Origin: Herminiimonas sp.
GTDB taxonomy: Bacteria; Pseudomonadota; Gammaproteobacteria; Burkholderiales; Burkholderiaceae_D
Reading direction: 5' to 3'
Assembly: GCA_028292665.1 (NCBI GenBank)
Contig: JAQGLW010000074.1
Location: 314-64,313 of the forward strand
DNA: 64,000 bases
This document shows positions 12,390-64,000 of the stretch, one piece after another; within the stretch, counting starts at the first letter, position 1, and the number at the start of each line of letters is the position of its first letter. Both the position numbers and the translations under genes were made by a program. The notes beneath the pieces were generated by a model. It was not told the origin of the DNA, made no database searches, and worked only from the letters and a program-made list of their open reading frames with translations.

Positions 12390-13184
12390 ATGCAAAGTAC
12401 TACGCTCAAAGGAAAGACTGCACTGATTACCGGTTCCACCTCGGGCATTGGGCTTGGAATAGCGAAGGCGCTCGCGGCACAAGGCGCTCATATTGTGTTC
12501 AACGGTTTTGGCGATGCCCGGGAAATTGCAAGGCTGCAGGCCGATGTTGCACGGGAATACGATGTCAAGACGATTTATCACAATGCGGACATGTCGAAAC
12601 CGGCCGAGATCGAAGCGATGATGCGCGCCGCTGCCGACCATCTGGGCGGAGTCGATATCCTGGTCAACAATGCCGGCATTCAGCATGTCGCCAACGTAGA
12701 AGACTTTCCTGTCGAGAAGTGGGATGCGATCATCGCGATCAATCTGACCTCGGCATTTCACACTACACGCCTTGCCTTGCCGCAAATGAAAACCAGAAAC
12801 TGGGGACGCATCATCAATATCGCATCAGCCCATGGATTGGTGGGCTCTGCGCAAAAATCAGCTTACGTTGCGGCCAAGCACGGCATCGTCGGCTTTACCA
12901 AAGTCACCGCATTGGAAACTGCGCAATCCGGCATTACCTGCAATGCGATCTGTCCCGGGTGGGTCTTGACGCCGCTGGTGCAGAAACAGGTCGATGCGCG
13001 CGCCGCCCAAGGCGGAATTTCGAATGAAGAGGCAAAAAAAGGCCTGCTTGCGGAGAAACAACCGTCGGGCGAATTCGTCACACCGGAACAATTGGGTGCG
13101 CTTGCTGTCTTTCTTTGCAGCGCTGCCGCGAACCAGGTACGCGGCGCCGCATGGAATATGGATGGGGGCTGGGTGGCTCAATGA
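12390..13184 (+). CDS. bdhA: D-3-hydroxybutyrate dehydrogenase (SDR)
   Basis: MQSTTLKGKTALITGSTSGIGLGIA...YVAAKHG...GGWVAQ. ATG at 12390 is preceded by AAGGA. The track ORF starts at a TTG (12372). Confidence 0.88.
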   Translation: MQSTTLKGKTALITGSTSGIGLGIAKALAAQGAHIVFNGFGDAREIARLQADVAREYDVKTIYHNADMSKPAEIEAMMRAAADHLGGVDILVNNAGIQHVANVEDFPVEKWDAIIAINLTSAFHTTRLALPQMKTRNWGRIINIASAHGLVGSAQKSAYVAAKHGIVGFTKVTALETAQSGITCNAICPGWVLTPLVQKQVDARAAQGGISNEEAKKGLLAEKQPSGEFVTPEQLGALAVFLCSAAANQVRGAAWNMDGGWVAQ

Positions 13185-13258
13185 CAATCCGAATCATCTG
13201 CTCCGATCCTTTTATATCCGATCAAGCCATCGTTGCCGTGATCAATCGGAAAGAGCGG

Positions 13259-14707
13259 ATGAATCAGTCGCGTAAAAGGCGTTCCAGCCCGGCGCATCCA
13301 AAAGCCGGTCTCCGCATCGGCCGGCTGGCCTTCATCGCCGCGATGGGCATGGCTGCATTCATTCAGCCCTGGAGCGAATGTGGCGCAAGCGCTTCGGCAA
13401 CGACCGTCGCAGCCGCCGGCATCGCATCTTCTGCATCGTCATCCGAACCGTCCGGCAATTCCTTGCCCGTTGCAAGCCGCAGTGTTCGTGTCGCCGTTCC
13501 GGACGGCATGAATACCAGCCCTTTCGATGTGCCTCGCATGCTCGCCGTGCCTCAGGGATTTGCAATTGCGGTATTCGCGCGAGTGGACAATGCGCGCTTC
13601 ATGGCTGTCGCACCGAACGGCGATTTGATGGTATCGAATCCCGAGGCCGGCAAAGTGATTCTGCTGCGCGCAAACGGCAAGGCTGCGCCTCGGCAGTTTG
13701 ACTTTGCATCAGGCTTGCAAAGACCGCATGACATCGTATTCCATACGTCAGGAAAAGCCACCTACATTTATATCGCTGAATCAAACCGCATCATCCGTGC
13801 GCCGTACACCCCGGGCCAAACCGGCATCGGCGCCGTGCAAACAGTGGTCGCCAACCTGCCCGATGCATCGAGCAAGGAGCTCAAGGGCCATTATGGCCAT
13901 CAGTTGAAGAACATCGCGCTCAACGGCAACAAGCTCTATGTATCGATTGCGTCAACCTGCAACGCGTGCGAATCGGATACGGTCTCGGACCCGATCCGCA
14001 GTGCGATCTACGAATACGATGCCGACGGAAAAAACCGGCGCCTGTATGCGCAGGGTTTGCGCAATGCCGAAGGAATCAGGTTCAAGCCCGGCACCAACGA
14101 ACTATGGGCCGTCGTCAATAGCCGGGACAATATCGCCTATCCATATCATAAGGACTGGAATGGCGACGGCAGCGACGATTTCGGTAAAGTGATGCAAAGC
14201 TATGTCGACGGTCATCCGCCGGATCTGCTGGTCAAGGTGAAAGACGGCGGTCGCTACGGCTGGCCGTTTTGCAATTCCAATCCGGATGCAGGGCTCGACA
14301 ACATGCCGTACGACCGCGATGCGCAACTGAATCCGGACGGCAGCATGCTTGATTGCGACAAGATCGATCGCGTCGCAAAAGGCATCCCGGCACATTCTGC
14401 GGCGCTCGGAATGAGCTTTCTGCAGAACTCGGGCTTTCCTGAAATGTATCGCAACGCGCTGGTCACTGCGCTGCACGGTTGCTGGAATTGCAGCTCGTTG
14501 AACGGCCACAAAATCGCGCTCTATCCCTTCAAGGCGGATGGCGGCGTAGGCGATGAAGTCGACCTGGTGACAGGCTGGGTCACCGATGCCAAGGCGAAAA
14601 AGCGCTGGGGCCGCCCGGTCGATGCGGTGCCGGACGGCAAAGGAGGACTATATATTTCGGATGACGATTCGGGGACGATTTATTTGCTTGCAAGTCCCTC
14701 TAAATAA
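13259..14707 (+). CDS. secreted PQQ-dependent sugar/sorbosone dehydrogenase-like beta-propeller protein
   Basis: Signal-like N-terminus MNQSRKRRSS...LAFIAAMGMAAF. Motifs RPHDIVF, NAEGIRFKPGTNELWAVVNSRD, GWPFCN and GRPVDAVPDGKGGLYISDD are present. The start is uncertain (13115, 13181 or 13259). Confidence 0.7.
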   Translation: MNQSRKRRSSPAHPKAGLRIGRLAFIAAMGMAAFIQPWSECGASASATTVAAAGIASSASSSEPSGNSLPVASRSVRVAVPDGMNTSPFDVPRMLAVPQGFAIAVFARVDNARFMAVAPNGDLMVSNPEAGKVILLRANGKAAPRQFDFASGLQRPHDIVFHTSGKATYIYIAESNRIIRAPYTPGQTGIGAVQTVVANLPDASSKELKGHYGHQLKNIALNGNKLYVSIASTCNACESDTVSDPIRSAIYEYDADGKNRRLYAQGLRNAEGIRFKPGTNELWAVVNSRDNIAYPYHKDWNGDGSDDFGKVMQSYVDGHPPDLLVKVKDGGRYGWPFCNSNPDAGLDNMPYDRDAQLNPDGSMLDCDKIDRVAKGIPAHSAALGMSFLQNSGFPEMYRNALVTALHGCWNCSSLNGHKIALYPFKADGGVGDEVDLVTGWVTDAKAKKRWGRPVDAVPDGKGGLYISDDDSGTIYLLASPSK

Positions 14708-17929: not shown

Positions 17930-18206
17930 GAACTTCTCCTCTTATTGTCTTGCGATTGACACTGCGGCAGTCTCTGAGACGTTATGATTACGTGAAAGAG
18001 TTTAGATTAAAGTGCAATGTCTGGCATTCCGGCTCAAAATCCCTGACAATTAGCACACTCGTTCGAATCAGTCCGGCACGATCAAGTCTTCATCCAATCG
18101 TGTCGTGTCCTGTTCTCGCCCTCTCCTTCGGGAGGAGAAGTGCGGGAGATGCGGCTCCATAGTTATTCATGCCGCATCGATAATTACACATTTACGGTGA
18201 TAAGAC

Positions 18207-19889
18207 ATGACCCAGAGCCAAACCCAAAGCATTCTCGAACAATATGGCCCGCGCGAAGCGATGGAATACGACGTTGTCATCGTCGGCGGCGGTCCGGCGG
18301 GTTTGTCGGCTGCAATCAGGCTCAAGCAGCTGGCGGCCGACAAAGGCAATGAAGTTTCCGTCTGCGTGCTTGAAAAAGGCGGCGAGCTCGGCGCCCATAT
18401 CCTGTCCGGCGCCGTCATGGATCCGATCGCGATCAACGAACTGTTCCCGGACTGGAAAGAGCGGGGCGCGCCGCTCAATACTCCCGTCAGCGAAGACCGC
18501 TTGCTGTTCCTCACCGAATCCAGGGCATTGAAGACACCGGCATGGATGCTGCCCGGCTGTTTCCGGAATCATGGCAATTACATCGTGTCGCTGGCCAACG
18601 TGGTGCGCTGGCTGGGTGTACAGGCAGAAGCGCTCGGCGTGGAAGTATTTCCCGGCTTTCCGGCAGCCGAAATCCTGTACAACGACGATGATTCGGTCAA
18701 AGGCGTTGCGACCGGCAACATGGGCGTCGACCGCCATGGCAATCCGACCGATGCGTTCCAGCTCGGCATGGAACTGCATGCCAAATACACGCTTTTTGCC
18801 GAAGGCGCACGCGGTCACCTGGGCAAGCAGTTGATCGCCAAATTCAATCTCGACAAAGACAAGGATCCGCAAACCTACGGCATCGGCATCAAGGAATTGT
18901 GGGAAATCGATCCGAAGCTGCACCAGCCCGGCCTGGTGATCCACACTGCCGGCTGGCCGCTCGATACCAGAACCTATGGCGGCTCGTTTCTCTATCATCT
19001 GGAAAATAACCAGGTCGCTGTCGGTTACGTCGTCGGCCTTGCCTATGAGAATCCATACTTGTCGCCGTATGAAGAATTCCAGCGCTACAAGACTCATCCG
19101 GAAATCCGCAAGTTCTTCGAAGGAGGCAAGCGCATCTCGTATGGCGCCCGTGCGATTACCGCAGGCGGTTTGCAATCGCTGCCCAAGCTGGCCTTCCCGG
19201 GCGGCGCCCTGCTCGGCTGCGATGCCGGCTTTTTGAATGCCAGCCGCATCAAAGGCAGCCACGCGGCGATGAAGACGGGCATGCTGGCAGCCGAAGCCGC
19301 GTTCGCCGCGCTGGGCGCCGATCGCCGATACGACGTACTGACCGAGTATGCAGCTGCCTTTGAAAAATCCTGGCTGCATGAAGAGCTGCACAAGGCGCGC
19401 AACTTCAAGCCGTGGATGAACAAGGGACTCTACACCGGCACGCTGATGGTCGGCATCGACCAGATCGTCTTCCGCGGCAAGGCGCCGTGGACGCTGCATC
19501 ATGCCCATGCCGACCATGAATGCCTGAAGCCGGCCGCCGAATGCACACCGATCGCCTATCCGAAGCCGGACGGCAAGATCACGTTCGACCGCCTGTCGTC
19601 GGTGTTCATCTCCAACACCAATCACGCGGAAGACCAGCCGGTGCATCTGACGCTGAAGGATCCGACGATACCGGTGCGGATCAATCTGGACATCTATGCA
19701 GGTCCGGAGGCGCGTTACTGCCCGGCCGGGGTGTATGAATTCGTGAAGGCGGACGACGGTGCGGAACGGTTGCAGATCAATGCGCAGAACTGCGTGCATT
19801 GCAAGACCTGCGACATCAAGGATCCGACGCAGAATATCGTGTGGGTGGCGCCGGAAGGCGGCGGCGGACCGAATTATCCGAATATGTAA
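18207..19889 (+). CDS. electron-transfer flavoprotein:ubiquinone oxidoreductase
   Basis: 560 aa with an FAD motif ([14 protein letters not shown]) and a C-terminal 4Fe-4S region ([12 protein letters not shown]...[12 protein letters not shown]). Confidence 0.95.
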
Positions 19890-54153: not shown

Positions 54154-54672
54154 TTGCTGCCGTTGAACATCATAGCAACTCCTTCTTTGAAAAGCCGCCT
54201 TGCCAGCATGGTGTATGAAGGCATGCTGCTGTTCGGCGTTCTTTTCATCGCTGTCTGGCTGTTTTCAACATTATTGCAGCAACGTCATGCACTCTATCTT
54301 CGCAATGCATTACAGGAATGGCTGTTTGTGGTGCTCGGCGTTTATTTTGCATGGTTCTGGAGCCATGGCGGACAAACGCTGGCCATGAAAACCTGGCATA
54401 TTCGTTTAGTAAAGGCAAATGGGCAACCGCTAACGTTTTGGCGTGCCGCTTTTCGATACTTGCTGGCTTGGCTTTGGTTTTTACCCGGCTTGGCGTTAGC
54501 GTGGGCATTAGGCGCAAAAGCCTGGATGCTGGTGGCGATTCCGGCTGCAAACGTAGCGCTATGGGCATTTGCCGTTTATCTTGATCCGCATCGCCAGTTT
54601 CTGCATGACCGATTAGCGGGCACGCGCCTGGTCGCGACTGCTGATAAATTGCCGAGAACAACCTCGACCTGA
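54154..54672 (+). CDS. RDD-family membrane protein
   Basis: 172 aa with 3-4 TM helices and the C-terminal ...HRQFLHDRLAGTRLV typical of RDD proteins. The start is uncertain (TTG 54154 or ATG 54208). Confidence 0.75.
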   Translation: MLPLNIIATPSLKSRLASMVYEGMLLFGVLFIAVWLFSTLLQQRHALYLRNALQEWLFVVLGVYFAWFWSHGGQTLAMKTWHIRLVKANGQPLTFWRAAFRYLLAWLWFLPGLALAWALGAKAWMLVAIPAANVALWAFAVYLDPHRQFLHDRLAGTRLVATADKLPRTTST

Positions 54673-55065
54673 TTGTCGTCGTACATTTGCATACTCCTGT
54701 CTGTTACAGAGATGACAGGGCCGGATCAATCGACTCTTGAAGTACCTCTGAGATCTTGATCGGCAAATGCAATTGTATTTGCCTGTCAATCCGCCATATT
54801 TCAAATTGCAGCAACTTTATCCTCTGCATTAAACATTCCTCAATCGCAATATTAAGCGTTGCACAGCGGCAAAAACTTCGTCAGAATGACATTCAGAATT
54901 AGCGCCGATATTTGTCAAGCGGACCGATCGAGAGCTGGCGCTTTTATAGACGAAAGCTGTTTCATTGACGATATTCAGTGAGAAGCCCGTGCGATCGAGC
55001 AGTGCTTGTGCGGTAACCGGAAAGCGGCGATCGCCTCGATGGATACGGATTTCATCGCAATATGC

Positions 55066-57363
55066 ATGACGCCGCGCAGCCATGATCCGAAGCGTGAAAT
55101 AAAAAAAGAAAGATCGTCGAACGCAATCGAGGAGAAACCGCTCTTGAAACAATATGCGATTCGCTATGCGTCGGGCCTGCTGCTTCTGTTCGGGTTGCTT
55201 GGCCACGTAAGCGGCGTATACAACTTATCCTTCATTGATTCTCTTGACAGGGTTATATACGACGCCAAATTACGATTGACCATGCCGCAAACAGTCGACG
55301 ATCGTGTGGTCATCCTCGATATCGACGAGAAAAGTATTGCCGAAATAGGCCGCTGGCCCTGGAACCGCGACAAAATGGCAGCGCTGGTGAACAAACTGTT
55401 CGAGCGCTACCATATTCGGCTGCTCGGATTCGATGTTGTCCTGGCCGAGCCCGACGAAAGTTCCGGGCTGAAAATTCTGCAAGGATTGGGGCAGCACGAA
55501 CTCAAGCACAACCAGCAGTACCTGGCCGCAGTGAAGCAGATGAGTCCGCAACTCGACTACGACAAGCTGTTTGCCAAATCGCTGCAAGGCAGGCCGGTTA
55601 TTCTCGGTTATTACATGGCTCACGGACAGATCGGCAGCGGTGCGATACCACAGCCCGTGCTATCCGCCAGGGCCTTTCAGGGACGCAGTATCCCTTTCTC
55701 TACCTGGTCAAGCTATGGCGGCAATTTGCCTGAATTCCAGGCTGCCGCTTCAGGCGGAGGGCACTTCAGTCCGATCCCCGATGCCGATGGCAGCATACGG
55801 CGCGTACCCCTGCTGGCCAAGTACAAGGATGCCTATTACGAAGCCTTTTCTCTCGCCATGGTGCGGGCGCTGCTCGACAATCCTCCGATTGTTCCCGGAT
55901 TCGGTGAAGAAACCTCCGGCGGTGACTACGCAGCCGTGGAATGGCTTGAATTGCCGACTGCCCGCGGCACCATGCGAATACCTGTGGATGGAAACGTTAC
56001 CGCATTGGTGCCGTACCGCGGTTACGAAAAAAGCTATCCATATTATTCAATCGCCGATGTGCTGGCTGATCGTATCAAGCCTGAACAACTTCAAGGAAAA
56101 ATCGCTTTGGTCGGAACCACGACACCTGGCCTGCGAGACCAACGTACGACACCGGTCGGAGAAGTGTATTCAGGAGTCGAGGTGCATGCCAACCTGATCA
56201 GCGGCATGCTCGACGGCACCATCAAACTCAAACCGCAATATGTCAATGCTGTTGAACTGATGCTTCTGATCCTGACCGGCGCACTGATGATCTTCCTGTT
56301 CCCGTGGCGATCGCCATTGCGCGCAACTCTGTCAACCTTGCTGATTCTGACAGCCGCCGTCGGGATCAACCTTGCATTCTGGCAGTACGCCAACTGGGTG
56401 CTGCCGCTGGCGACAAGTCTGCTTTTGATAAGCAGCTTGTTCATATTCAATATGTCGTACGGCTATTTTGTCGAATCCAGATCGAAACGCCAGTTCACCG
56501 AATTGTTCGGTCAATACGTGCCGCCTGAACTGGTGGAAAAAATGAGCCTCAATCCTCAGAGCTATAGCATGGCAGGCCGCAAGGCAGCGCTTACGGTGCT
56601 ATTCTCCGATGTGCGCGGCTTTACTACCATTTCGGAGGGAATGGAACCCGATCAGCTGGCGCAACTGATGAACGAATATCTCAGCGCCATGACTGTGGTG
56701 GTGCGCAAGCACCGGGGCACGCTTGACAAATATATAGGCGATGCAATCATGGCGTTCTGGGGCGCTCCTGTAGATGACCCTGAGCACGCCCGCCATGCCA
56801 TCGTCACTGCACTCGAAATGCAGCAGGCATTGCGTGATCTGAACCGGACGCTGGTCGCCAGAGGCTCACCGGCAATGGAAATCGGTATAGGGATCAATAC
56901 CGGAACGATGACTGTCGGCGACATGGGATCGGTGGTGCGCAAGGCTTATACCGTGATGGGCGATGCCGTCAATCTCGGCTCGCGCCTGGAAAGCATTACG
57001 AAGCAGTATGGCGTTGGTATCATCGTCGGCGCAACGACTCGCAATGAGGCAACCGACATGTTATTTCGTGAGATCGATCTGGTCCAGGTCAAGGGCAAAG
57101 AGGAACCTGTGGCAATTTACGAACCGCTGGGCTTTGAAGGAGAACTTTCAGAAGAAATGCTCGATGAACTGGAGCGATGGCATCAGGCATTGCATGATTA
57201 TCGGATGCGGAAGTGGAATGCGGCAGATGCGGCACTGGCGGACCTTGCACAATTGCGGCCCGATTCCAGGCTCTATGCACTCTACAGGGAGAGGATTGCG
57301 GCTTTTCAGGTGACCCCGCCAGACCCGGAGTGGATCGGAGTAACCAGGTTCGATACAAAATAG
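55066..57363 (+). CDS. CHASE2-sensor class III adenylate/guanylate cyclase (predicted adenylate cyclase)
   Basis: One N-terminal TM, a periplasmic CHASE2-like region of about 330 aa, then 3 TM. The cyclase core reads LTVLFSDVRGFT...LDKYIGDAIMAFWGAP...AYTVMGDAVNLGSRLE. The start is ambiguous (TTG 55006, ATG 55039, ATG 55066). Confidence 0.88.
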   Translation: MTPRSHDPKREIKKERSSNAIEEKPLLKQYAIRYASGLLLLFGLLGHVSGVYNLSFIDSLDRVIYDAKLRLTMPQTVDDRVVILDIDEKSIAEIGRWPWNRDKMAALVNKLFERYHIRLLGFDVVLAEPDESSGLKILQGLGQHELKHNQQYLAAVKQMSPQLDYDKLFAKSLQGRPVILGYYMAHGQIGSGAIPQPVLSARAFQGRSIPFSTWSSYGGNLPEFQAAASGGGHFSPIPDADGSIRRVPLLAKYKDAYYEAFSLAMVRALLDNPPIVPGFGEETSGGDYAAVEWLELPTARGTMRIPVDGNVTALVPYRGYEKSYPYYSIADVLADRIKPEQLQGKIALVGTTTPGLRDQRTTPVGEVYSGVEVHANLISGMLDGTIKLKPQYVNAVELMLLILTGALMIFLFPWRSPLRATLSTLLILTAAVGINLAFWQYANWVLPLATSLLLISSLFIFNMSYGYFVESRSKRQFTELFGQYVPPELVEKMSLNPQSYSMAGRKAALTVLFSDVRGFTTISEGMEPDQLAQLMNEYLSAMTVVVRKHRGTLDKYIGDAIMAFWGAPVDDPEHARHAIVTALEMQQALRDLNRTLVARGSPAMEIGIGINTGTMTVGDMGSVVRKAYTVMGDAVNLGSRLESITKQYGVGIIVGATTRNEATDMLFREIDLVQVKGKEEPVAIYEPLGFEGELSEEMLDELERWHQALHDYRMRKWNAADAALADLAQLRPDSRLYALYRERIAAFQVTPPDPEWIGVTRFDTK

Positions 57364-57375
57364 GCCAAATATAAA

Positions 57376-58143
57376 ATGAAATTAAGAGTTCTCGGCTGCA
57401 GCGGAGGAATCGGAGGACGGCACTTGCATACGACTTCGATGCTGGTCGATCATGACATCCTGATCGATGCCGGCACCGGGGTGGGCGATTTGAGTGTCGC
57501 GGAGCTTGTGCTGATCGATCATGTATTCATTACGCATTCGCATCTCGATCATATTGCCTGCCTGCCGTTCATCCTCGATACAGTGGGCGATATGCGCAGC
57601 AAACCGCTGACAATGTATGCGACGCAGGCGACACAGGAAATCATCAGGACCCATATTTTCAACTGGGCGATCTGGCCCGACTTCAGCGAAATTCCGGATG
57701 CGGAAAATCCTTACCTGCGTTTTCATACCATTCGCCTTGGAGAGAACGTATGTCTGAACGGGCGCAATATCACCGCTTTGCCTGCCATGCACACGGTTCC
57801 CGCAGTCGGATACCACCTCGATAGCGGTGCCGCAAGCCTGGTGTTTACAGGTGATACGACAGCCAACGACGAATTCTGGAATGAAGTGAACAAGATTGAC
57901 AATCTGCGTTATTTGATCATCGAGACCGCCTTTTCCAACAGTGAAAAGCAACTTGCGATCATTTCCAGACATCTGTGCCCCAGCATGCTCGGCGAAGAAC
58001 TTCAAAAGCTCCGGCACAATCCGGAAATATACATTACGCATTTGAAGCCTGGACAAATCGAAGTCACCATGCGGGAAATCGAGGAAGGCATCGGCCAGTA
58101 CAAGCCTCGCATGCTGCAGAATGACCAGGTATTCGAATTTTAA
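57376..58143 (+). CDS. MBL-fold hydrolase, class-II-like 3',5'-cyclic-nucleotide phosphodiesterase
   Basis: 255 aa, MKLRVLGCSGGIGG.... The THSHLDH motif (57532-57552) matches the HxHLDH signature of class II cAMP phosphodiesterases. It starts 12 nt after the cyclase stop. Confidence 0.72.
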   Translation: MKLRVLGCSGGIGGRHLHTTSMLVDHDILIDAGTGVGDLSVAELVLIDHVFITHSHLDHIACLPFILDTVGDMRSKPLTMYATQATQEIIRTHIFNWAIWPDFSEIPDAENPYLRFHTIRLGENVCLNGRNITALPAMHTVPAVGYHLDSGAASLVFTGDTTANDEFWNEVNKIDNLRYLIIETAFSNSEKQLAIISRHLCPSMLGEELQKLRHNPEIYITHLKPGQIEVTMREIEEGIGQYKPRMLQNDQVFEF

Positions 58144-58346
58144 AGTTCGCCGGACGATATCCGCCCGGCATCGATGAAAGAATCAGAAAATTCCCATGCA
58201 ATCCTCATCGATCGGACAGTTCGGCAATCCGGCACTGCTTGCACTGCTGCCGCCCCGGAGTATGCGAAAGAGCGCCGTTTTGCCATACGAGGCAATCACC
58301 CGTGACGCTGCGATCAGTGCAAACAAAGATGAATGGATGAGATGAC

Positions 58347-60716
58347 ATGAGTGCAGTTCTCGGAACACAGCAAATCAACGGCGACATCGGCGACGTCAAA
58401 AGCCGTCTGGAGTTTTCACAGAGGCTTCAGGCAGTCACCAACAAGATTCACGCGACCAGCAACATAGACGAGATCATGCTCGATCTGCCGCTGGATATAT
58501 GCAACCTGTTCGATTGCGATCGATTCACCCTGTATGCCGTCAGCGATGACAAAGCCTTCATCGTTTCAAAAATCAAAACCGGGCTCAAGGCATTCAACAA
58601 TCTGACGCTGCCTATCTCTGAAAAAAGCATTGCGGGACATGCCGCACTTTTCAAAAGAACTATCCGGCTAAGCGATGTGTACGATGAGGCAGAGCTGGAA
58701 TCCTATTCGCCGAAGCTGCAATTTCTGCAAGAGGTGGACAAGCAGACCGGTTATCGCACCAAGCAGATGCTGGTTGCCCCTTTGATCAACGTGCAGAGCA
58801 ACGAATTGCTAGGCGTTATACAGCTTATCAACAATCGTGCCGGCGGACCTTTTACAGCGATGGCCGAGGACGGCGTCAAGGAATTATGCGCTACCCTTGT
58901 AATTGCGTTCACGCAGAGGCTGCGCCCGCCTCCGCCGATTCGTTCGAAATACGATCCGCTGGTATCCGGCGCAATTCTGTCGGCGCCCGAGTTTGAACTT
59001 GCCACACGTTCGGCACGGCGCCAGGAAATCGACATCGAAGAAGTGCTGCTCAATGAATTCAATGTCAAATTGCCGTCTATCGGCCAGGCGCTCGGCACGT
59101 TCTTCGGCGTTCCCTACGAGCCTTACAAGGCCGAACGGATCAAGCCGATCGATCTTTTAAAAAATCTCAAGCGTGACTATGTAGAGCAGAATCGCTGGTT
59201 GCCGATCGAAGACGGCAAGGAAGGCCTGATTATCCTTGCGCTTGATCCCGAGCAGGTAAAAAGCGTGCGCGTCGTCAACAATATTTTTCCAAAAGCCAAA
59301 CTGGCCTATCGAGTTACGACGAATGCCGAGTTCAAGCAGACAGTCGATCAATTTTTCGGCATTGCGGACGATCCAACTTCCGTTGACGATCTCCTGTCGG
59401 GCATGGAGGACGGCGACGAAGAGAACGAAGTTTCCGCTACCGATATTTCTGCGGCCGCCGAGAATGAGCTCGTCAAACTGGTCAACAAGATCATTGTCGA
59501 CGCCCATCGTCAAGGCGCTTCCGACATTCATATCGAACCGCGGCCCGGGAAAGAAAAAACGCTGATCCGTTTTCGCAAGGATGGTTCGCTGGAACCCTAT
59601 ATCGAAATCCCGCCGAGCTATCGTAACGCCCTCCTGGCGCGTATCAAGATCATGTGCGATCTCGATATTTCGGAACGACGAAAGCCGCAGGATGGAAAAA
59701 TAAAATTCAAGAAATACGGTCCGCTCGACATTGAGTTGCGGGTTGCAACGATTCCGTCGGCCGGCGGCGTCGAAGACGTTGTAATGCGGATTCTCGCAGC
59801 CGGCGAGCCGATTCCGCTCGACAAGCTGGGTGTGCTGCCATACAACCTCGAGCGACTCAAGGAAACAGTCGAAAAACCCTACGGAATATTTTTTGTGTGC
59901 GGCCCGACCGGTTCCGGCAAAACCACGACGCTGCATTCGGTGCTCAGCTATCTCAACAAACCCGACACCAAGATATGGACAGCGGAAGATCCGGTGGAAA
60001 TCACCCAGAAAGGATTGCGCCAGGTTCAGGTGAACCGCAAGGCCGGGCTCGATTTCGCCACTGTCATGCGCGCATTTCTGCGGGCCGACCCGGACATTAT
60101 CATGGTCGGCGAAATGCGCGACAAGGAAACGGTTTCGATCGGCCTTGAAGCTTCCCTGACCGGCCATCTGGTTTTCGCCACCTTGCATACGAACAGTGCG
60201 CCGGAATCGATCGTTCGGCTTCTGGACATGGGCATGGACCCATTCAATTTTGCAGATGCATTGCTCGGCGTTTTGGCGCAGCGGCTGGCCAAACGCCTAT
60301 GCACAAAATGCAAAACGGCTTATCAGCCTTCGCCGGAAGAAATACAAGGCCTGCTGACCGAGTATTGCGAAGAACTAATGAATACCGAGGCTTTTATCAA
60401 AGACCCGCAAGCCGGGCGCAGCAAGGTGCTCGGCACATGGATGGAAAGATACGCCGACGACAATGGGAAATTCACTCTTTACCGCGCGGTCGGATGCGAA
60501 CAATGCAGCAAAGGCTACAAGGGCCGGGTCGGCTTGCATGAATTGATGGTCGGCTCCGACAAAGTCAAGCGATTGCTCCAGGAGCATGCTCGCGTAGCGC
60601 AACTGCTCGCGGCGGCACTGGAAGACGGCATGCTTACGCTCAAAATGGATGGTATTGAAAAGGTGCTCTCCGGCGCTACCGACATCAAGCAGGTGCGCCA
60701 GGTCTGCATCAAGTAA
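58347..60716 (+). CDS. GAF-domain fused GspE/PilB-family secretion ATPase
   Basis: 789 aa. The N-terminal GAF-like domain spans about aa 25-190 (..CDRFTLYAV...IAGHAA...LVAPLIN..LLGVIQLINN). A T2SSE_N-like domain follows. The ATPase core has Walker A GPTGSGKTT (59901-59927), an Asp box, Walker B IIMVGEMRD, a His box (TGHLVFATLHTN) and tetra-Cys CTKC...CEQC. Confidence 0.88.
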   Translation: MSAVLGTQQINGDIGDVKSRLEFSQRLQAVTNKIHATSNIDEIMLDLPLDICNLFDCDRFTLYAVSDDKAFIVSKIKTGLKAFNNLTLPISEKSIAGHAALFKRTIRLSDVYDEAELESYSPKLQFLQEVDKQTGYRTKQMLVAPLINVQSNELLGVIQLINNRAGGPFTAMAEDGVKELCATLVIAFTQRLRPPPPIRSKYDPLVSGAILSAPEFELATRSARRQEIDIEEVLLNEFNVKLPSIGQALGTFFGVPYEPYKAERIKPIDLLKNLKRDYVEQNRWLPIEDGKEGLIILALDPEQVKSVRVVNNIFPKAKLAYRVTTNAEFKQTVDQFFGIADDPTSVDDLLSGMEDGDEENEVSATDISAAAENELVKLVNKIIVDAHRQGASDIHIEPRPGKEKTLIRFRKDGSLEPYIEIPPSYRNALLARIKIMCDLDISERRKPQDGKIKFKKYGPLDIELRVATIPSAGGVEDVVMRILAAGEPIPLDKLGVLPYNLERLKETVEKPYGIFFVCGPTGSGKTTTLHSVLSYLNKPDTKIWTAEDPVEITQKGLRQVQVNRKAGLDFATVMRAFLRADPDIIMVGEMRDKETVSIGLEASLTGHLVFATLHTNSAPESIVRLLDMGMDPFNFADALLGVLAQRLAKRLCTKCKTAYQPSPEEIQGLLTEYCEELMNTEAFIKDPQAGRSKVLGTWMERYADDNGKFTLYRAVGCEQCSKGYKGRVGLHELMVGSDKVKRLLQEHARVAQLLAAALEDGMLTLKMDGIEKVLSGATDIKQVRQVCIK

Positions 60717-60727
60717 AGGAGGTCGTA

Positions 60728-62386
60728 GTGGGCACAGTAGATGATCTTTTGCGCCGTCTTGACCAGCTTAACGAGGTCGGCGCCGCGCTGTCGAACGAGC
60801 GCGACATCAAGCGCCTGCTGGAAAAAATCCTGATTGCAGCCCAAAAAATCACGCAGGCTGACGGCGGCACGCTTTACTCGATGACTGAAGACAAGTCCAG
60901 CCTGCAGTTCGAAATTCTCAGAAATACCAGCCTGGCAATCGCTCTTGGGGGAACCTCCGACAAGCCGATCCCGTTTGCAGCGCTGCCGCTGACAACGGAA
61001 GATGGATTGCCGAACACCTCGATGATCGCGGCGTATTGCGCAATTCATCGAAAAACGGTGAATATTCCGGATGCATACGAAGCAAAAGGCTTCGATTTTT
61101 CCGGAACACGCAGATTCGATGAAGGTATCGGTTATCGTTCGAAATCGTTTCTCACCGTACCGATGAAAAATCACGAGGACGAAATAATCGGCGTGCTGCA
61201 ACTGATCAATGCCATCGATGCAGATACGAATCAGGTGGTGCCGTTTTCAGCGGCAGCCCAGCGTCTGGCCGAGTCGCTCGCATCGCAAGCTGCGATTGCG
61301 CTTTCCAATCGCCAGTTGATCCTGCAGCAGGAAGCCTTGTTCGAATCGTTCATCGGCATGATCAACTTCGCCATTGACGACAAATCCCCCTATACCGGCG
61401 GACACTGCCAGCGTGTTCCTGCGCTTACGATGATGCTTGCCGAAGCGGTCGAGGAAACCACCGAGGGGCCGTTTGCGTCGTTCAGCATGACCGAGCAGGA
61501 TCGTTACGAATTGAAGATCGCCGGACTTCTGCATGACTGCGGCAAAATCACGACGCCGGTTCATGTCGTGGACAAGGAAACCAAGCTGCAAACCATTTTT
61601 GATCGCATCGATCTGGTGGATACGCGCTTTGAAGTACTGAAACGGGATGCTGAAATCGCGATGCTCGAAGCCAGGCTTGCATTGCGTGCCGCAGAAAATC
61701 CTGCCGCCGAAAAGGCTTTGGAATCCGGGTTCAGGCAACAGGTGGAACAGCTCGATAGCGAGCGCGAATTTCTGCGCCGGGCGAATATCGGCAGCGAGGC
61801 GATGCGGTCGGAAGACCAGCAGGCCGTACGCGATATCGGTGCAAGTCATCGATGGATCAATCCCCAAGGGGAAACGGTAAATTTTCTTACCGATAACGAA
61901 ACGGAAAATCTGGTCATACGTGCCGGCACGCTTACTCCGTCCGAACGTGAAATCATTAACAATCACATCGTCGTCACCATCAAGATGCTCGAAAGCCTGC
62001 CTTGGGTCAAGCATCTCAAACGCGTGCCGGAATATGCCGGCGGGCATCATGAACGGATGGATGGCAAAGGCTATCCACGCGGTCTTACGCGTGATCAGAT
62101 GTCGGTGCAGGCCCGGATCATGGGCATCGCCGACATCTTCGAGGCACTTACCGCAAAAGACCGCCCTTACAAACCCGGCAAAACGCTTTCCGAATCATTA
62201 AGCATCTTGGCCAAACTCAATCGCAACGGCCACATCGATCCCGATCTGTTCAATATTTTCGTGCGCAGCAAGGTCTATCTCAAATATGGATTGGAGTTTC
62301 TCGACCCTGAACAGATTGATGAAGTGGATGAATCCAAAGTCATTGAATTTGCCGCCGGGTCCGACAAACCGCATAACAATTCTTAA
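60728..62386 (+). CDS. GAF-domain fused HD-GYP phosphohydrolase
   Basis: GTG start 5 nt after AAGGAGG. 552 aa with an N-terminal GAF-like domain (..DGGTLYSM...FLTVPMKNHEDEIIGVLQLINA). HD is at 61532-61537 (LLHDCGK) and HHERMDGKGYPRGL at about 62045-62085, separated by an unusually long insert of about 170 aa. Confidence 0.88.
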   Translation: MGTVDDLLRRLDQLNEVGAALSNERDIKRLLEKILIAAQKITQADGGTLYSMTEDKSSLQFEILRNTSLAIALGGTSDKPIPFAALPLTTEDGLPNTSMIAAYCAIHRKTVNIPDAYEAKGFDFSGTRRFDEGIGYRSKSFLTVPMKNHEDEIIGVLQLINAIDADTNQVVPFSAAAQRLAESLASQAAIALSNRQLILQQEALFESFIGMINFAIDDKSPYTGGHCQRVPALTMMLAEAVEETTEGPFASFSMTEQDRYELKIAGLLHDCGKITTPVHVVDKETKLQTIFDRIDLVDTRFEVLKRDAEIAMLEARLALRAAENPAAEKALESGFRQQVEQLDSEREFLRRANIGSEAMRSEDQQAVRDIGASHRWINPQGETVNFLTDNETENLVIRAGTLTPSEREIINNHIVVTIKMLESLPWVKHLKRVPEYAGGHHERMDGKGYPRGLTRDQMSVQARIMGIADIFEALTAKDRPYKPGKTLSESLSILAKLNRNGHIDPDLFNIFVRSKVYLKYGLEFLDPEQIDEVDESKVIEFAAGSDKPHNNS

Positions 62387-62692
62387 AGCTTCAGTACAAA
62401 CGGCAGCGCTCTGCCCGCATAAACATTCGCGCAACAGCATCGTCCGTCCAACGATCGCCGCCGCGAATGCAGGGGACTCGCGTTGCAGCTTTTGCTGTTT
62501 TCCACCAAGATGCATGGATTCCATGCACGGCAGCCTATGATGCTGCAACAGTTTCCATATCGTCATGCCCTGCTTGCACTATTGCGCCGACCTTGGCGAT
62601 GACTACGGCAATGGCACAGTACAATACGGAATGATGGACGTCTTCCACAAGTGTTATCACGGCATATCGAATTTATCCGTACACGGCATTTC

Positions 62693-63661
62693 ATGGTAAC
62701 CCGCATCACACGCATACTTATTTTTTTTCAGATCGCCGTCGCGATCGCACTGTGCGCGCTCATGATCAAGGCAGGCCACATCGACAGTTCGATGCTGGCT
62801 GTGGGTTTGAGTATCGGGCTTGTTTTGCTGATGCGCCTTTTGATTACCGCCAATAATTTTTTCATTGCGTGGCTGTATCGCAGCGAAACGCCGAATTTGC
62901 TCCATCTCAACTATCGTCAGGCCTGCCGGTTATTCATAGACGAATTTTATGCATCAATGTCAAGTTCTTCCTGGACGATGGCTTTTCATTCATTCACCAA
63001 ACGTCCGGCGGAAGATCCAATCGGATTGCCGGTTCTGCTTATTCATGGTTATGGCTGCAACAGCGGCTACTGGCATGCAATGAGCAGGAGATTGAAACGG
63101 GAGCGCATCACCCACTACGCTGTTGACCTGGAGCCGGTATTGGCCGGCATCGATGACTATGTGCCCGCGGTAAATGACACTGTGGAAACGCTATGCAGGG
63201 AAACCGGCCATGACAAAGTCATCATCGTCGCCCACAGCATGGGTGGTTTGGTGGCACGCGCTTATCTGCGCGACTACGGCAATGCACGTATCGCCAAAGT
63301 AATTACGCTCGGGACGCCGCATCGCGGGACAGGTCTGGCGAATTTCGGCGCAGGCCCGAATTCAAAGCAGATGCGTTGGAAAGGGAAAGCAGGAAACGGC
63401 GTGCCAAGCGAATGGTTGCGCAAACTGGAAGCTGCTGAAGACAATGCTGTCCGGGCATTATTCGTATCGATTTATTCGCATCATGACAATATCGTTTCGC
63501 CGCAAATTTCATCTCGCTTCGCCGGCGCTGCAAATATCGAATTTCATGGTGTCGGGCATGTTGCGTTGGCATTCAACCCAGCCATTCAGACGCGTGTAGT
63601 TGAAGAAATTCAAAATACGCCGCAAAAAATATCTGCCGTGTCTGAAGAAAAATTTGCCTGA
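62693..63661 (+). CDS. membrane-anchored alpha/beta hydrolase (lipase-like)
   Basis: ATG at 62693 gives MVTRITRILIFFQIAVAIALCAL... (2 TM). Then PVLLIHGYGCNSGYW, the nucleophile elbow AHSMGG, and GTPHRGT. Confidence 0.78.
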   Translation: MVTRITRILIFFQIAVAIALCALMIKAGHIDSSMLAVGLSIGLVLLMRLLITANNFFIAWLYRSETPNLLHLNYRQACRLFIDEFYASMSSSSWTMAFHSFTKRPAEDPIGLPVLLIHGYGCNSGYWHAMSRRLKRERITHYAVDLEPVLAGIDDYVPAVNDTVETLCRETGHDKVIIVAHSMGGLVARAYLRDYGNARIAKVITLGTPHRGTGLANFGAGPNSKQMRWKGKAGNGVPSEWLRKLEAAEDNAVRALFVSIYSHHDNIVSPQISSRFAGAANIEFHGVGHVALAFNPAIQTRVVEEIQNTPQKISAVSEEKFA

Positions 63662-63898
63662 TACATTGATCAATCCGGATGGTGGATGTAATTCAATCGC
63701 TCTCCATACTCATTTTTGCGACAGCAATTCATGAAAAAAAGTATATATGGCAACCGGTTTACTTGAACTTTTTTTATTAAATGACAACTCAATAGCTATA
63801 ACCCGATTTTTGCAATCGCGTTAGTTAGCGCGACACGCATGCCTGTCAATTTGACGGTTAATTGCCGTTATTTTTGCCATCATACCAAGGAAACTGCC

Positions 63899-64000
63899 AT
63901 GAAAAATCACTATCGGAAGGTCGCAGCCATCATTGCGCTGTCCTTTGGAATCGCGCCTGTTTTTGCGGCGGATATCGTTGATACTGCAACAGCAGCCGGA
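63899..64000 (+). CDS. fasciclin-domain protein (5' fragment, truncated by the window end)
   Basis: AAGGA lies 7 nt upstream of the ATG. MKNHYRKVAAIIALSFGIAPVFA|ADIVDTATAAG has a signal peptide plus the typical fasciclin N-terminus. Only 34 codons are visible. Confidence 0.5.
   Translation, partial: MKNHYRKVAAIIALSFGIAPVFAADIVDTATAAG

Follow-up and report, generated by a model that had tools for sequence, protein, structure and literature searches.

A PilB/GspE-type ATPase with an N-terminal GAF domain and its putative cAMP module in Herminiimonas and other Betaproteobacteria

We analyzed a 64-kb window of DNA from Herminiimonas sp. (contig JAQGLW010000074.1; coordinates below are positions in this window) and focused on an ATPase gene at 58347..60716 on the + strand. 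The gene encodes 789 amino acids (aa). Its open reading frame (ORF), the longest in the region, opens with the first start codon that follows a stop, and the N-terminal peptide MSAVLGT is common to the ATPase and its close homologs. The ORF and its Pfam matches (T2SSE, MshEN, and GAF_3) give a three-part layout, which was confirmed on closer analysis: a GAF domain, an MshEN/GSPII domain, and a PilB/GspE-type core. The family to which it belongs is a widespread, uncharacterized variant of the PilB/GspE ATPases.

From 55006 to 62386 every gene lies on the + strand. Upstream of the ATPase are a class III nucleotide cyclase that carries a CHASE2 sensor and is predicted to be an adenylyl cyclase (55006..57363, +; Pfam CHASE2 and Guanylate_cyc), and a 255-aa class-II cyclic mononucleotide (cNMP) phosphodiesterase (PDE) with a metallo-beta-lactamase fold and an HSHLDH motif (57376..58143, +; Pfam Lactamase_B_2 and PDEase_II, the latter at 47.9 bits against a cut-off of 23.7). 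Downstream is a GAF-HD-GYP phosphodiesterase with the GYP motif HHERMDGKGYPRG (60728..62386, +; Pfam GAF, HD, and HD_5). The cyclase and PDE genes are separated by 12 nucleotides (nt) and the PDE and ATPase genes by 203 nt, while 11 nt lie between the ATPase stop codon and the start of the HD-GYP gene.

The ATPase core and its cyclic-nucleotide-type GAF domain

The PilB/GspE-type core comprises the N2 and C-terminal domains (aa 372-783, 59460..60695, +). It matched Pfam T2SSE with an E-value of 5.5e-114 and 381.1 bits, against a cut-off of 24.9, and its matches in the Protein Data Bank (PDB) were PilB (7e-105), PilF (3e-103), and GspE (1e-92). Regular-expression scans located the Walker A motif GPTGSGKT (aa 519-526, 59901..59924, +) and a tetra-Cys zinc site made up of CTKC (aa 652-655) and CEQC (aa 717-720) at 60300..60506 (+). 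Further catalytic motifs are the Asp box AEDPVE, the Walker B motif DIIMVGEMRD, and the His box TGHLVFATLHTN. With Walker A and B, the Asp and His boxes, and the tetra-Cys site all present in the sequence, the catalytic core looks intact, and the first-pass annotation of this window was right to assign the gene to the GspE/PilB family with a complete core. An acidic, flexible linker (aa 346-371, 59382..59459, +) precedes the core; it is rich in Asp and Glu and corresponds to residues 150-175 of the structure model described below, where the predicted local distance difference test (pLDDT) is low.

At the other end of the protein, the N-terminal domain is, by sequence and structure-model comparison, a GAF domain of the cyclic-nucleotide-binding type (aa ~20-192, 58404..58922, +). 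The Pfam match to GAF_3 (aa 40-187) was weak, with an E-value of 0.0036 that is under the Pfam cut-off. A phmmer search of the PDB with aa 1-370 matched both GAFs of Anabaena CyaB2 at 3e-20 and GAF-A of PDE5A at 5e-10, as well as GAF-B of PDE10A and GAF-B of PDE2A. A profile of 56 family members gave CyaB2 at 9e-33, PDE10A at 1.6e-15, and PDE2A at about 1e-15. The PDB GAFs matched below 1e-5 were nearly all cNMP binders (CyaB2, PDE5, PDE10, PDE2, and PDE6), and GAFs with other ligands reached only E-values above 1e-5. The exception was the GAF of the HD-GYP protein PmGH (4mcw), which has no assigned ligand. An AlphaFold2 (AF2) model of aa 1-198, with a pLDDT of 76.6, matched 4mcw, 3lfv, 1ykd, 2zmf, and 5w10 with a Foldseek probability of 1.00; the GAFs matched at this level are those of PmGH, PDE5A, CyaB2, PDE2A, PDE10A, and Lcd1 bound to cyclic AMP (cAMP).

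The contacts to cAMP in GAF-B of CyaB2 are R291, T293, I308, D356, and N359 (PMC4411481); the chain index in 1ykd is the CyaB2 residue number minus 57. In a HMMER alignment these five positions map without gaps onto R59, T61, I76, D131, and T134 of the ATPase, the predicted contacts, and 4/5 are identical. The fifth, N359 in CyaB2, is Thr (T134), as it is in GAF-A of CyaB2 and in PDE5. R59, T61, D131, and T134 are invariant across 52 family members. The N-terminal GAF proposed in the first-pass annotation is thus borne out both by the database and structural matches and by comparison of its contact residues with those of CyaB2, and judging from the sequence cAMP is the more likely ligand.

This GAF subfamily is common to the ATPase, CyaB2, Lcd1 of Leptospira (a GAF-GGDEF protein), and Tlr0485 of Thermosynechococcus (a GAF-HD-GYP protein). 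Unlike these, the ATPase has a secretion-superfamily ATPase as its output domain. We found no GAF-regulated member of that superfamily in the literature, and searches for GAF with MshEN, T2SSE, GspE, or PilB, or for CHASE2 with HD-GYP and pili, returned no paper on this architecture.

Some relatives carry tandem GAF-GAF forms ahead of the MshEN domain (P0002, P0005, P0012, and P0019), and the longer representatives reach 940-1125 aa. The tandem arrangement resembles that of CyaB2 and the mammalian PDEs, and tandem GAFs are known to sharpen specificity for cAMP over cGMP (PMC4411481).

An MshEN-fold domain with degenerate c-di-GMP motifs

Between the GAF domain and the linker lies an MshEN/GSPII-fold domain (aa ~201-345, 58947..59381, +) in which the motifs for cyclic di-GMP (c-di-GMP) are degenerate. 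It consists of a four-helix bundle (aa 201-257) followed by an alpha/beta subdomain. Pfam MshEN, formerly T2SSE_N, matched aa 253-340 with 29.6 bits, above its gathering score of 23.1. For aa 196-370, AF2 gave a model with a pLDDT of 86.4, and the top Foldseek match of this model was the complex of Vibrio cholerae MshE with c-di-GMP (5htl), with a target template modeling (TM) score of 0.70. GSPII-B and GSPII-A of PilF, the N-domain of Xanthomonas PilB (7lkm), and XpsE (2d27) came next. The fold assignment accordingly has the model's matches to 5htl, 8pdk, and 2d27 behind it. By sequence, MshE 5htl was also matched in the PDB search, at 2.2e-15 and in sixth rank; a single-sequence phmmer search of the PDB with aa 191-370 alone gave no match at E <= 10. 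The presence of a T2SSE_N/MshEN domain, which had been noted in the first-pass annotation, is therefore supported by profile and structure.

The c-di-GMP motif of MshEN domains consists of two tandem 24-residue copies of RLGxx(L/V/I)(L/V/I)xxG(L/V/I)(L/V/I)xxxxLxxxLxxQ, for which a relaxed form has also been described (Wang et al. 2016). Neither the strict nor the relaxed form matched anywhere in the ATPase, and the relaxed form was found in 0/28 diverse family representatives with identity down to 27% (29 sequences were scanned when the ATPase itself is counted). As the reference for individual motif positions we used the PilBs of Myxococcus xanthus and Geobacter, aligned end to end with the family profile; motif II (RLGSILIKNGLISEPDLTSFLSKQ) is canonical there. 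Where motif I has its key residues R, L, G, L, L, and Q, the ATPase has S200, K201, Y202, F216, T220, and A223, and at the corresponding positions of motif II it has D229, I230, E231, I245, L249, and F252. The Arg, the Gly, and the Gln of each motif are therefore replaced, and in the ATPase as well as in the family consensus (KYDYLVADAVLSAxEFELAxRxARKK...DIExVLxxEFQVKxPAIGxALSKFFGVPY) the second Gly position is occupied by an acidic residue. The hydrophobic core of the bundle is retained despite the loss of the motifs.

It had been suggested by eye that this region resembles one half of the MshEN motif. The peptide concerned, LVSGAILSAPEFELATRSARRQ (aa 205-226), does occupy the place of motif I. 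The resemblance, however, does not survive alignment: G208-A-I is followed by four residues and then by E215 instead of Leu, and the Gln comes four residues too late. G208 itself, on which the suggestion was based, is Asp or Ala in the family consensus. Canonical c-di-GMP binding by this domain is, on its sequence, very unlikely.

This bears on the idea, put forward with the motif, that the ATPase integrates two messengers, with a cNMP bound at the GAF, c-di-GMP bound at the MshEN domain, and the neighboring HD-GYP enzyme setting the c-di-GMP input. The complete MshEN fold, with c-di-GMP-bound MshE as the best structural match, and the co-conserved HD-GYP gene 11 nt past the stop codon would both suit such an integrator. 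The ligand residues would not: the Arg/Gly/Gln positions read S/Y/A in the first motif and D/E/F in the second, the same substitutions run through the family consensus, and the 28 representatives lack even the relaxed motif. Wang et al. report that a change at any single conserved hydrophobic residue of the MshEN motif lowers affinity more than 10-fold, and Xanthomonas PilB and XpsE show the fold in a form that does not bind the ligand. We regard two-messenger integration on the ATPase itself as highly improbable.

Instead, the domain resembles the versions in the N-domain of Xanthomonas PilB and in XpsE (7lkm and 2d27), where the MshEN fold with degenerate motifs binds no c-di-GMP and serves protein contacts. 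Docking to a partner protein or machine is the more likely role here, rather than binding of c-di-GMP. There are differences as well. The GAF is present only in the ATPase, and c-di-GMP reaches Xanthomonas PilB and XpsE through PilZ and FimX adaptors; for the ATPase no adaptor is known, and none is encoded near it. MshE and GSPII-B of Thermus PilF share the superfamily and the fold of the N-domain (Foldseek target TM 0.70-0.72), but their two c-di-GMP-binding motifs are absent from the ATPase. The PilBs of M. xanthus (3jc8) and Geobacter (5tsg and 5zfr) have the same succession of an MshEN-fold N-domain, an acidic linker, N2, and a tetra-Cys ATPase domain. Compared with them, the ATPase has an additional GAF of ~195 aa in front, is not encoded beside pilC or pilD, has lost the c-di-GMP motif residues, and reads PQDGK for PQDGR. 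For annotation in general, a Pfam MshEN match or a likeness to the motif seen by eye should not be equated with a c-di-GMP receptor.

A conserved gene neighborhood

A search of 90% clusters with aa 1-370 returned 1068 proteins at E <= 1e-5. Among the matches listed, those with names were mostly betaproteobacterial, and nearly all combined GAF with MshEN; T2SSE was present too where the partial sequence reaches far enough. In the 50% representative set there were 210 clusters at E <= 1e-30, tandem GAF-GAF forms among them. A scan of one genome per species found relatives in at least 577 genomes, most of them from Betaproteobacteria. The highest identity to the ATPase was 72% (Lacisediminimonas and Paucimonas). 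Culturable carriers include Noviherbaspirillum autotrophicum and Sulfuritalea hydrogenivorans, and AP021857.1 and NZ_CP176528.1 are complete genomes with the gene.

For the gene neighborhoods we searched with an alignment of close relatives (A4) and counted locus features over 80 loci. Linkage was evaluated where the flanking DNA reached at least 6 kb upstream and at least 2.5 kb downstream, as it did in 46 loci. The PDE gene was linked in 44/46, the GAF-HD-GYP gene in 44/46, and the cyclase gene in 40/46 of these; all three partners were present in 40/46 and none in 2/46. The locus of the closest relative (L002) also has the upstream ilvB-sigma-DUF3619-DUF3106-RDD synteny of the window. The colinear arrangement seen in the window was found in 52 loci, mostly of Rhodocyclales, and a divergent arrangement, with cyclase, HD-GYP, and PDE genes on the opposite strand, in 18 loci of Noviherbaspirillum and relatives. 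Because the linkage survives this rearrangement, it argues for functional coupling of the genes.

The cyclase has the specificity residues Lys (in DKYIGD) and Thr (in AYTVMGD). Alignments show Lys/Thr in Pseudomonas aeruginosa CyaB (3r5g) as well, and Glu/Gly in the guanylyl cyclase Cya2 (2w01). CyaB is a class IIIb enzyme, and 3r5g was the third-best match to the cyclase domain. The HD-GYP protein scored 49.8 bits with Pfam GAF and 148.2 bits with HD_5, carries the motifs HDCGK and GKGYPRG, and matched PmGH (5e-27) and the GAF of PDE5A (9e-17) in the PDB. Its GAF is homologous to that of the ATPase (BLASTP 5e-13), with a Gly at the position equivalent to R291 of CyaB2, and the protein as a whole has the architecture of Tlr0485.

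The catalytic domain of the HD-GYP protein is split by an insertion of ~100 aa (aa 297-393): the Pfam HD match stops at aa 296, and the HD_5 match continues from aa 394. Its best PDB relatives include 5z7c, an HD-GYP protein specific for 3'3'-cGAMP, and for this reason its substrate could be cGAMP rather than c-di-GMP.

A gene for a cNMP_binding-rhodanese protein (355 aa) lies between the PDE and ATPase genes in 53/80 loci (for example, L002:6860-7864 and L015:8858-9925). The window has no such gene at that position, only the 203-bp gap (58144-58346). In Noviherbaspirillum, a 186-aa cNMP_binding protein adjoins the ATPase. At one Noviherbaspirillum locus (L011:12335-20738) the ATPase is flanked by the cNMP_binding protein, a FecR-domain protein, and a two-partner secretion protein of 2235 aa; together they may form an envelope system with the CHASE2 sensor as its recipient. 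In Rhodocyclales, the CHASE2 cyclase gene is immediately preceded by genes for a CHASE2-Ser/Thr kinase, a PP2C phosphatase, and an FHA protein (L015:1454-5726; 37-41/80 loci). The cAMP module thus has another CHASE2 sensor next to it, one whose output would be phosphorylation.

Two loci of Desulfobacterales (L082:10001-12318 and L083:10001-12320) have the ATPase in two overlapping ORFs, GAF-MshEN and then T2SSE. We considered a genuinely split ATPase and rejected it; assembly frameshifts are the likelier cause, since the split points differ and L083 contains many other split genes.

Proposed mechanism and output machine

In the best-supported picture, built on these sequence comparisons, a single cAMP input would feed two outputs: the PilB-like motor on one side and a c-di-GMP hydrolase on the other. 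The membrane CHASE2 adenylyl cyclase would make cAMP upon an extracytoplasmic cue and the class-II PDE would remove it. Two GAF proteins, the ATPase and the GAF-HD-GYP enzyme, would read the cAMP. The latter would hydrolyze c-di-GMP, which would then be an output of the module and not a second input to the ATPase, and the MshEN-fold domain would dock the ATPase to a partner or machine encoded elsewhere. The single input with two outputs is suggested by the cNMP-type GAF of the HD-GYP protein and by its co-conservation with the ATPase, cyclase, and PDE. The first-pass annotation had already connected the HD-GYP gene with the ATPase; that link holds insofar as the gene is a co-conserved neighbor (44/46 loci), but the proposed role of setting a ligand for the ATPase is not supported, and the enzyme would read cNMP through a GAF of its own. 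Control of c-di-GMP enzymes by cAMP-binding GAFs has been documented for an HD-GYP protein (Tlr0485) and a GGDEF protein (Lcd1), so the HD-GYP arm has a direct precedent in Tlr0485 and the logic of a GAF acting on a c-di-GMP enzyme has one in Lcd1.

At the center of this picture is a hexameric ATPase of the PilB/GspE superfamily that would be gated by cAMP at its N-terminal GAF within a conserved four-gene cAMP module, a proposal for which we judge the chances to be evenly balanced. We infer cAMP binding, an effect of it on ATPase activity, and a type IV pilus (T4P) output. Somewhat more speculatively, and with less than even confidence, cAMP might directly switch a T4P-type ATPase on or off while the HD-GYP enzyme lowers c-di-GMP at the same time, so that cells could flip between sessile and pilus-driven states without transcription.

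Direct regulation of pilus and secretion ATPases is known for c-di-GMP, acting via MshEN domains, and for the PilZ and FimX adaptors, and the known action of cAMP on pili is via transcription. CyaB, cAMP, and Vfr of P. aeruginosa are tied to T4P biology in this way, with cAMP acting via Vfr on transcription, whereas the ATPase described here carries its sensor within the same polypeptide, an arrangement that implies post-translational control. A GAF-fused ATPase would, if the proposal is true, add direct gating of the motor by cAMP and be the first member of the secretion ATPase superfamily to be gated by a cyclic mononucleotide. Together with the GAF-HD-GYP enzyme, the module would couple cAMP to c-di-GMP, and a single envelope signal sensed by CHASE2 would act in several hundred betaproteobacterial species. 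Carriers of the module (the at least 577 species genomes) include denitrifying and sulfur-oxidizing Rhodocyclales and soil Oxalobacteraceae, and a result obtained in one of them should transfer widely.

The output machine of the ATPase is most likely a type IVa pilus encoded elsewhere, an assignment with roughly equal chances of being right or wrong. PilB and PilF rank above GspE in both the profile and the PDB comparisons. In all 30/30 evaluable colinear loci, which are from Rhodocyclales, the 6 kb downstream include a gene for a type IV major pilin, usually about 220 bp past the HD-GYP gene (median gap 226 bp). Additional PilB-like motors have a precedent in Betaproteobacteria, since the genome paper on the betaproteobacterium Ramlibacter reports three PilB paralogs and one pilus machine. 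The 64-kb window itself contains no gene for a type II secretion system (T2SS) or T4P, no pilC, pilD, or pilMNOPQ, and no pilin motif, which agrees with the earlier remark that no cognate machinery is encoded nearby. The annotated loci of relatives likewise have no pilC, pilD, or pilMNOPQ, and the sole adjoining pilus gene is the pilin gene of Rhodocyclales.

We also considered whether the pilin gene belongs to the same operon as the module; the median gap of 226 bp and the sigma-54-like promoter that this gap contains in 16/34 loci speak against it, and we rejected it. Sulfuritalea-type loci (L032, L043, L045, L046, L054, L066, L071, and L075-L077) have very short pilins of about 53-54 aa from GFTLIEL to the stop, sometimes in tandem (e.g. 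L054:14189-14350). These recall the truncated pilins of Geobacter and Azoarcus.

Several observations weigh against the proposal as a whole. The ATPase falls below the cut-offs of both equivalog models, with 470.9 bits against 675.65 for PilB (TIGR02538) and 439.4 bits against 630.25 for GspE (TIGR02533), the PilB score being slightly the higher. The Arg of the PQDGR element in the N2 domain of PilB structures is Lys throughout the family (K451, PQDGKIKF; 59697-59699); in EpsE, this Arg is among the residues on which ATPase activity depends. Distant family members, from Nitrospinota and Desulfobacterales, have housekeeping surroundings without a nearby cyclase. Pilin adjacency is confined to Rhodocyclales: a pilin gene was found in 1/13 evaluable divergent loci and is missing from the window, and a sigma-54-like promoter of the pilin gene's own precedes it in 16/34 loci. 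The adjacency may thus be lineage synteny only. Finally, the NKFDE signature of cNMP GAFs, NK...Fx3DE in its canonical form (PMC4411481), is only approximate in the ATPase (N163-R164...F169-x4-E174-D175, with one extra residue).

We considered two further alternatives. The GAF might bind no cyclic nucleotide and act as a dimerization or scaffold module, or bind another small molecule, in which case the linkage would reflect co-regulation only. The deviating NKFDE spacing, the sub-threshold Pfam match, the distant members without a cyclase neighbor, and the structurally closest protein, PmGH, with no ligand identified for its GAF, are all compatible with this. We nevertheless consider it unlikely: 4/5 of the CyaB2 contacts are identical, with R59, T61, D131, and T134 invariant in the family, the sequence neighbors in the PDB are nearly all cNMP binders, and the linkage to cyclase and PDE genes is kept through rearrangement. 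Alternatively, the ATPase might serve a T2SS, another filament machine (MSHA-like or a competence pilus), or some unknown machine in place of a type IVa pilus. The GspE score is close to that of PilB, the window has no pilus gene, and family members are mostly found as orphans. Set against this are the top sequence and profile matches, which are PilB and PilF, the end-to-end alignment of the N-domain with PilB N-termini, and the adjacent pilin gene in Rhodocyclales, which leave another machine a doubtful candidate and the type IVa pilus the preferred one.

The rest of the window contains pheST, thrS, a gene for a RelA/SpoT protein, the nuo operon, tpiA, pnp, leuA, ilv genes, and an ECF sigma cluster. 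A promoter and terminator scan of 54600-64000 gave counts equal to the shuffled expectation. Two long ORFs, one of 530 aa (13115-14707, +) and one of 535 aa (18192-19799, -), had no Pfam match at E <= 1e-5. Both overlap a further long ORF on the opposite strand, and one member of each pair may therefore be spurious.

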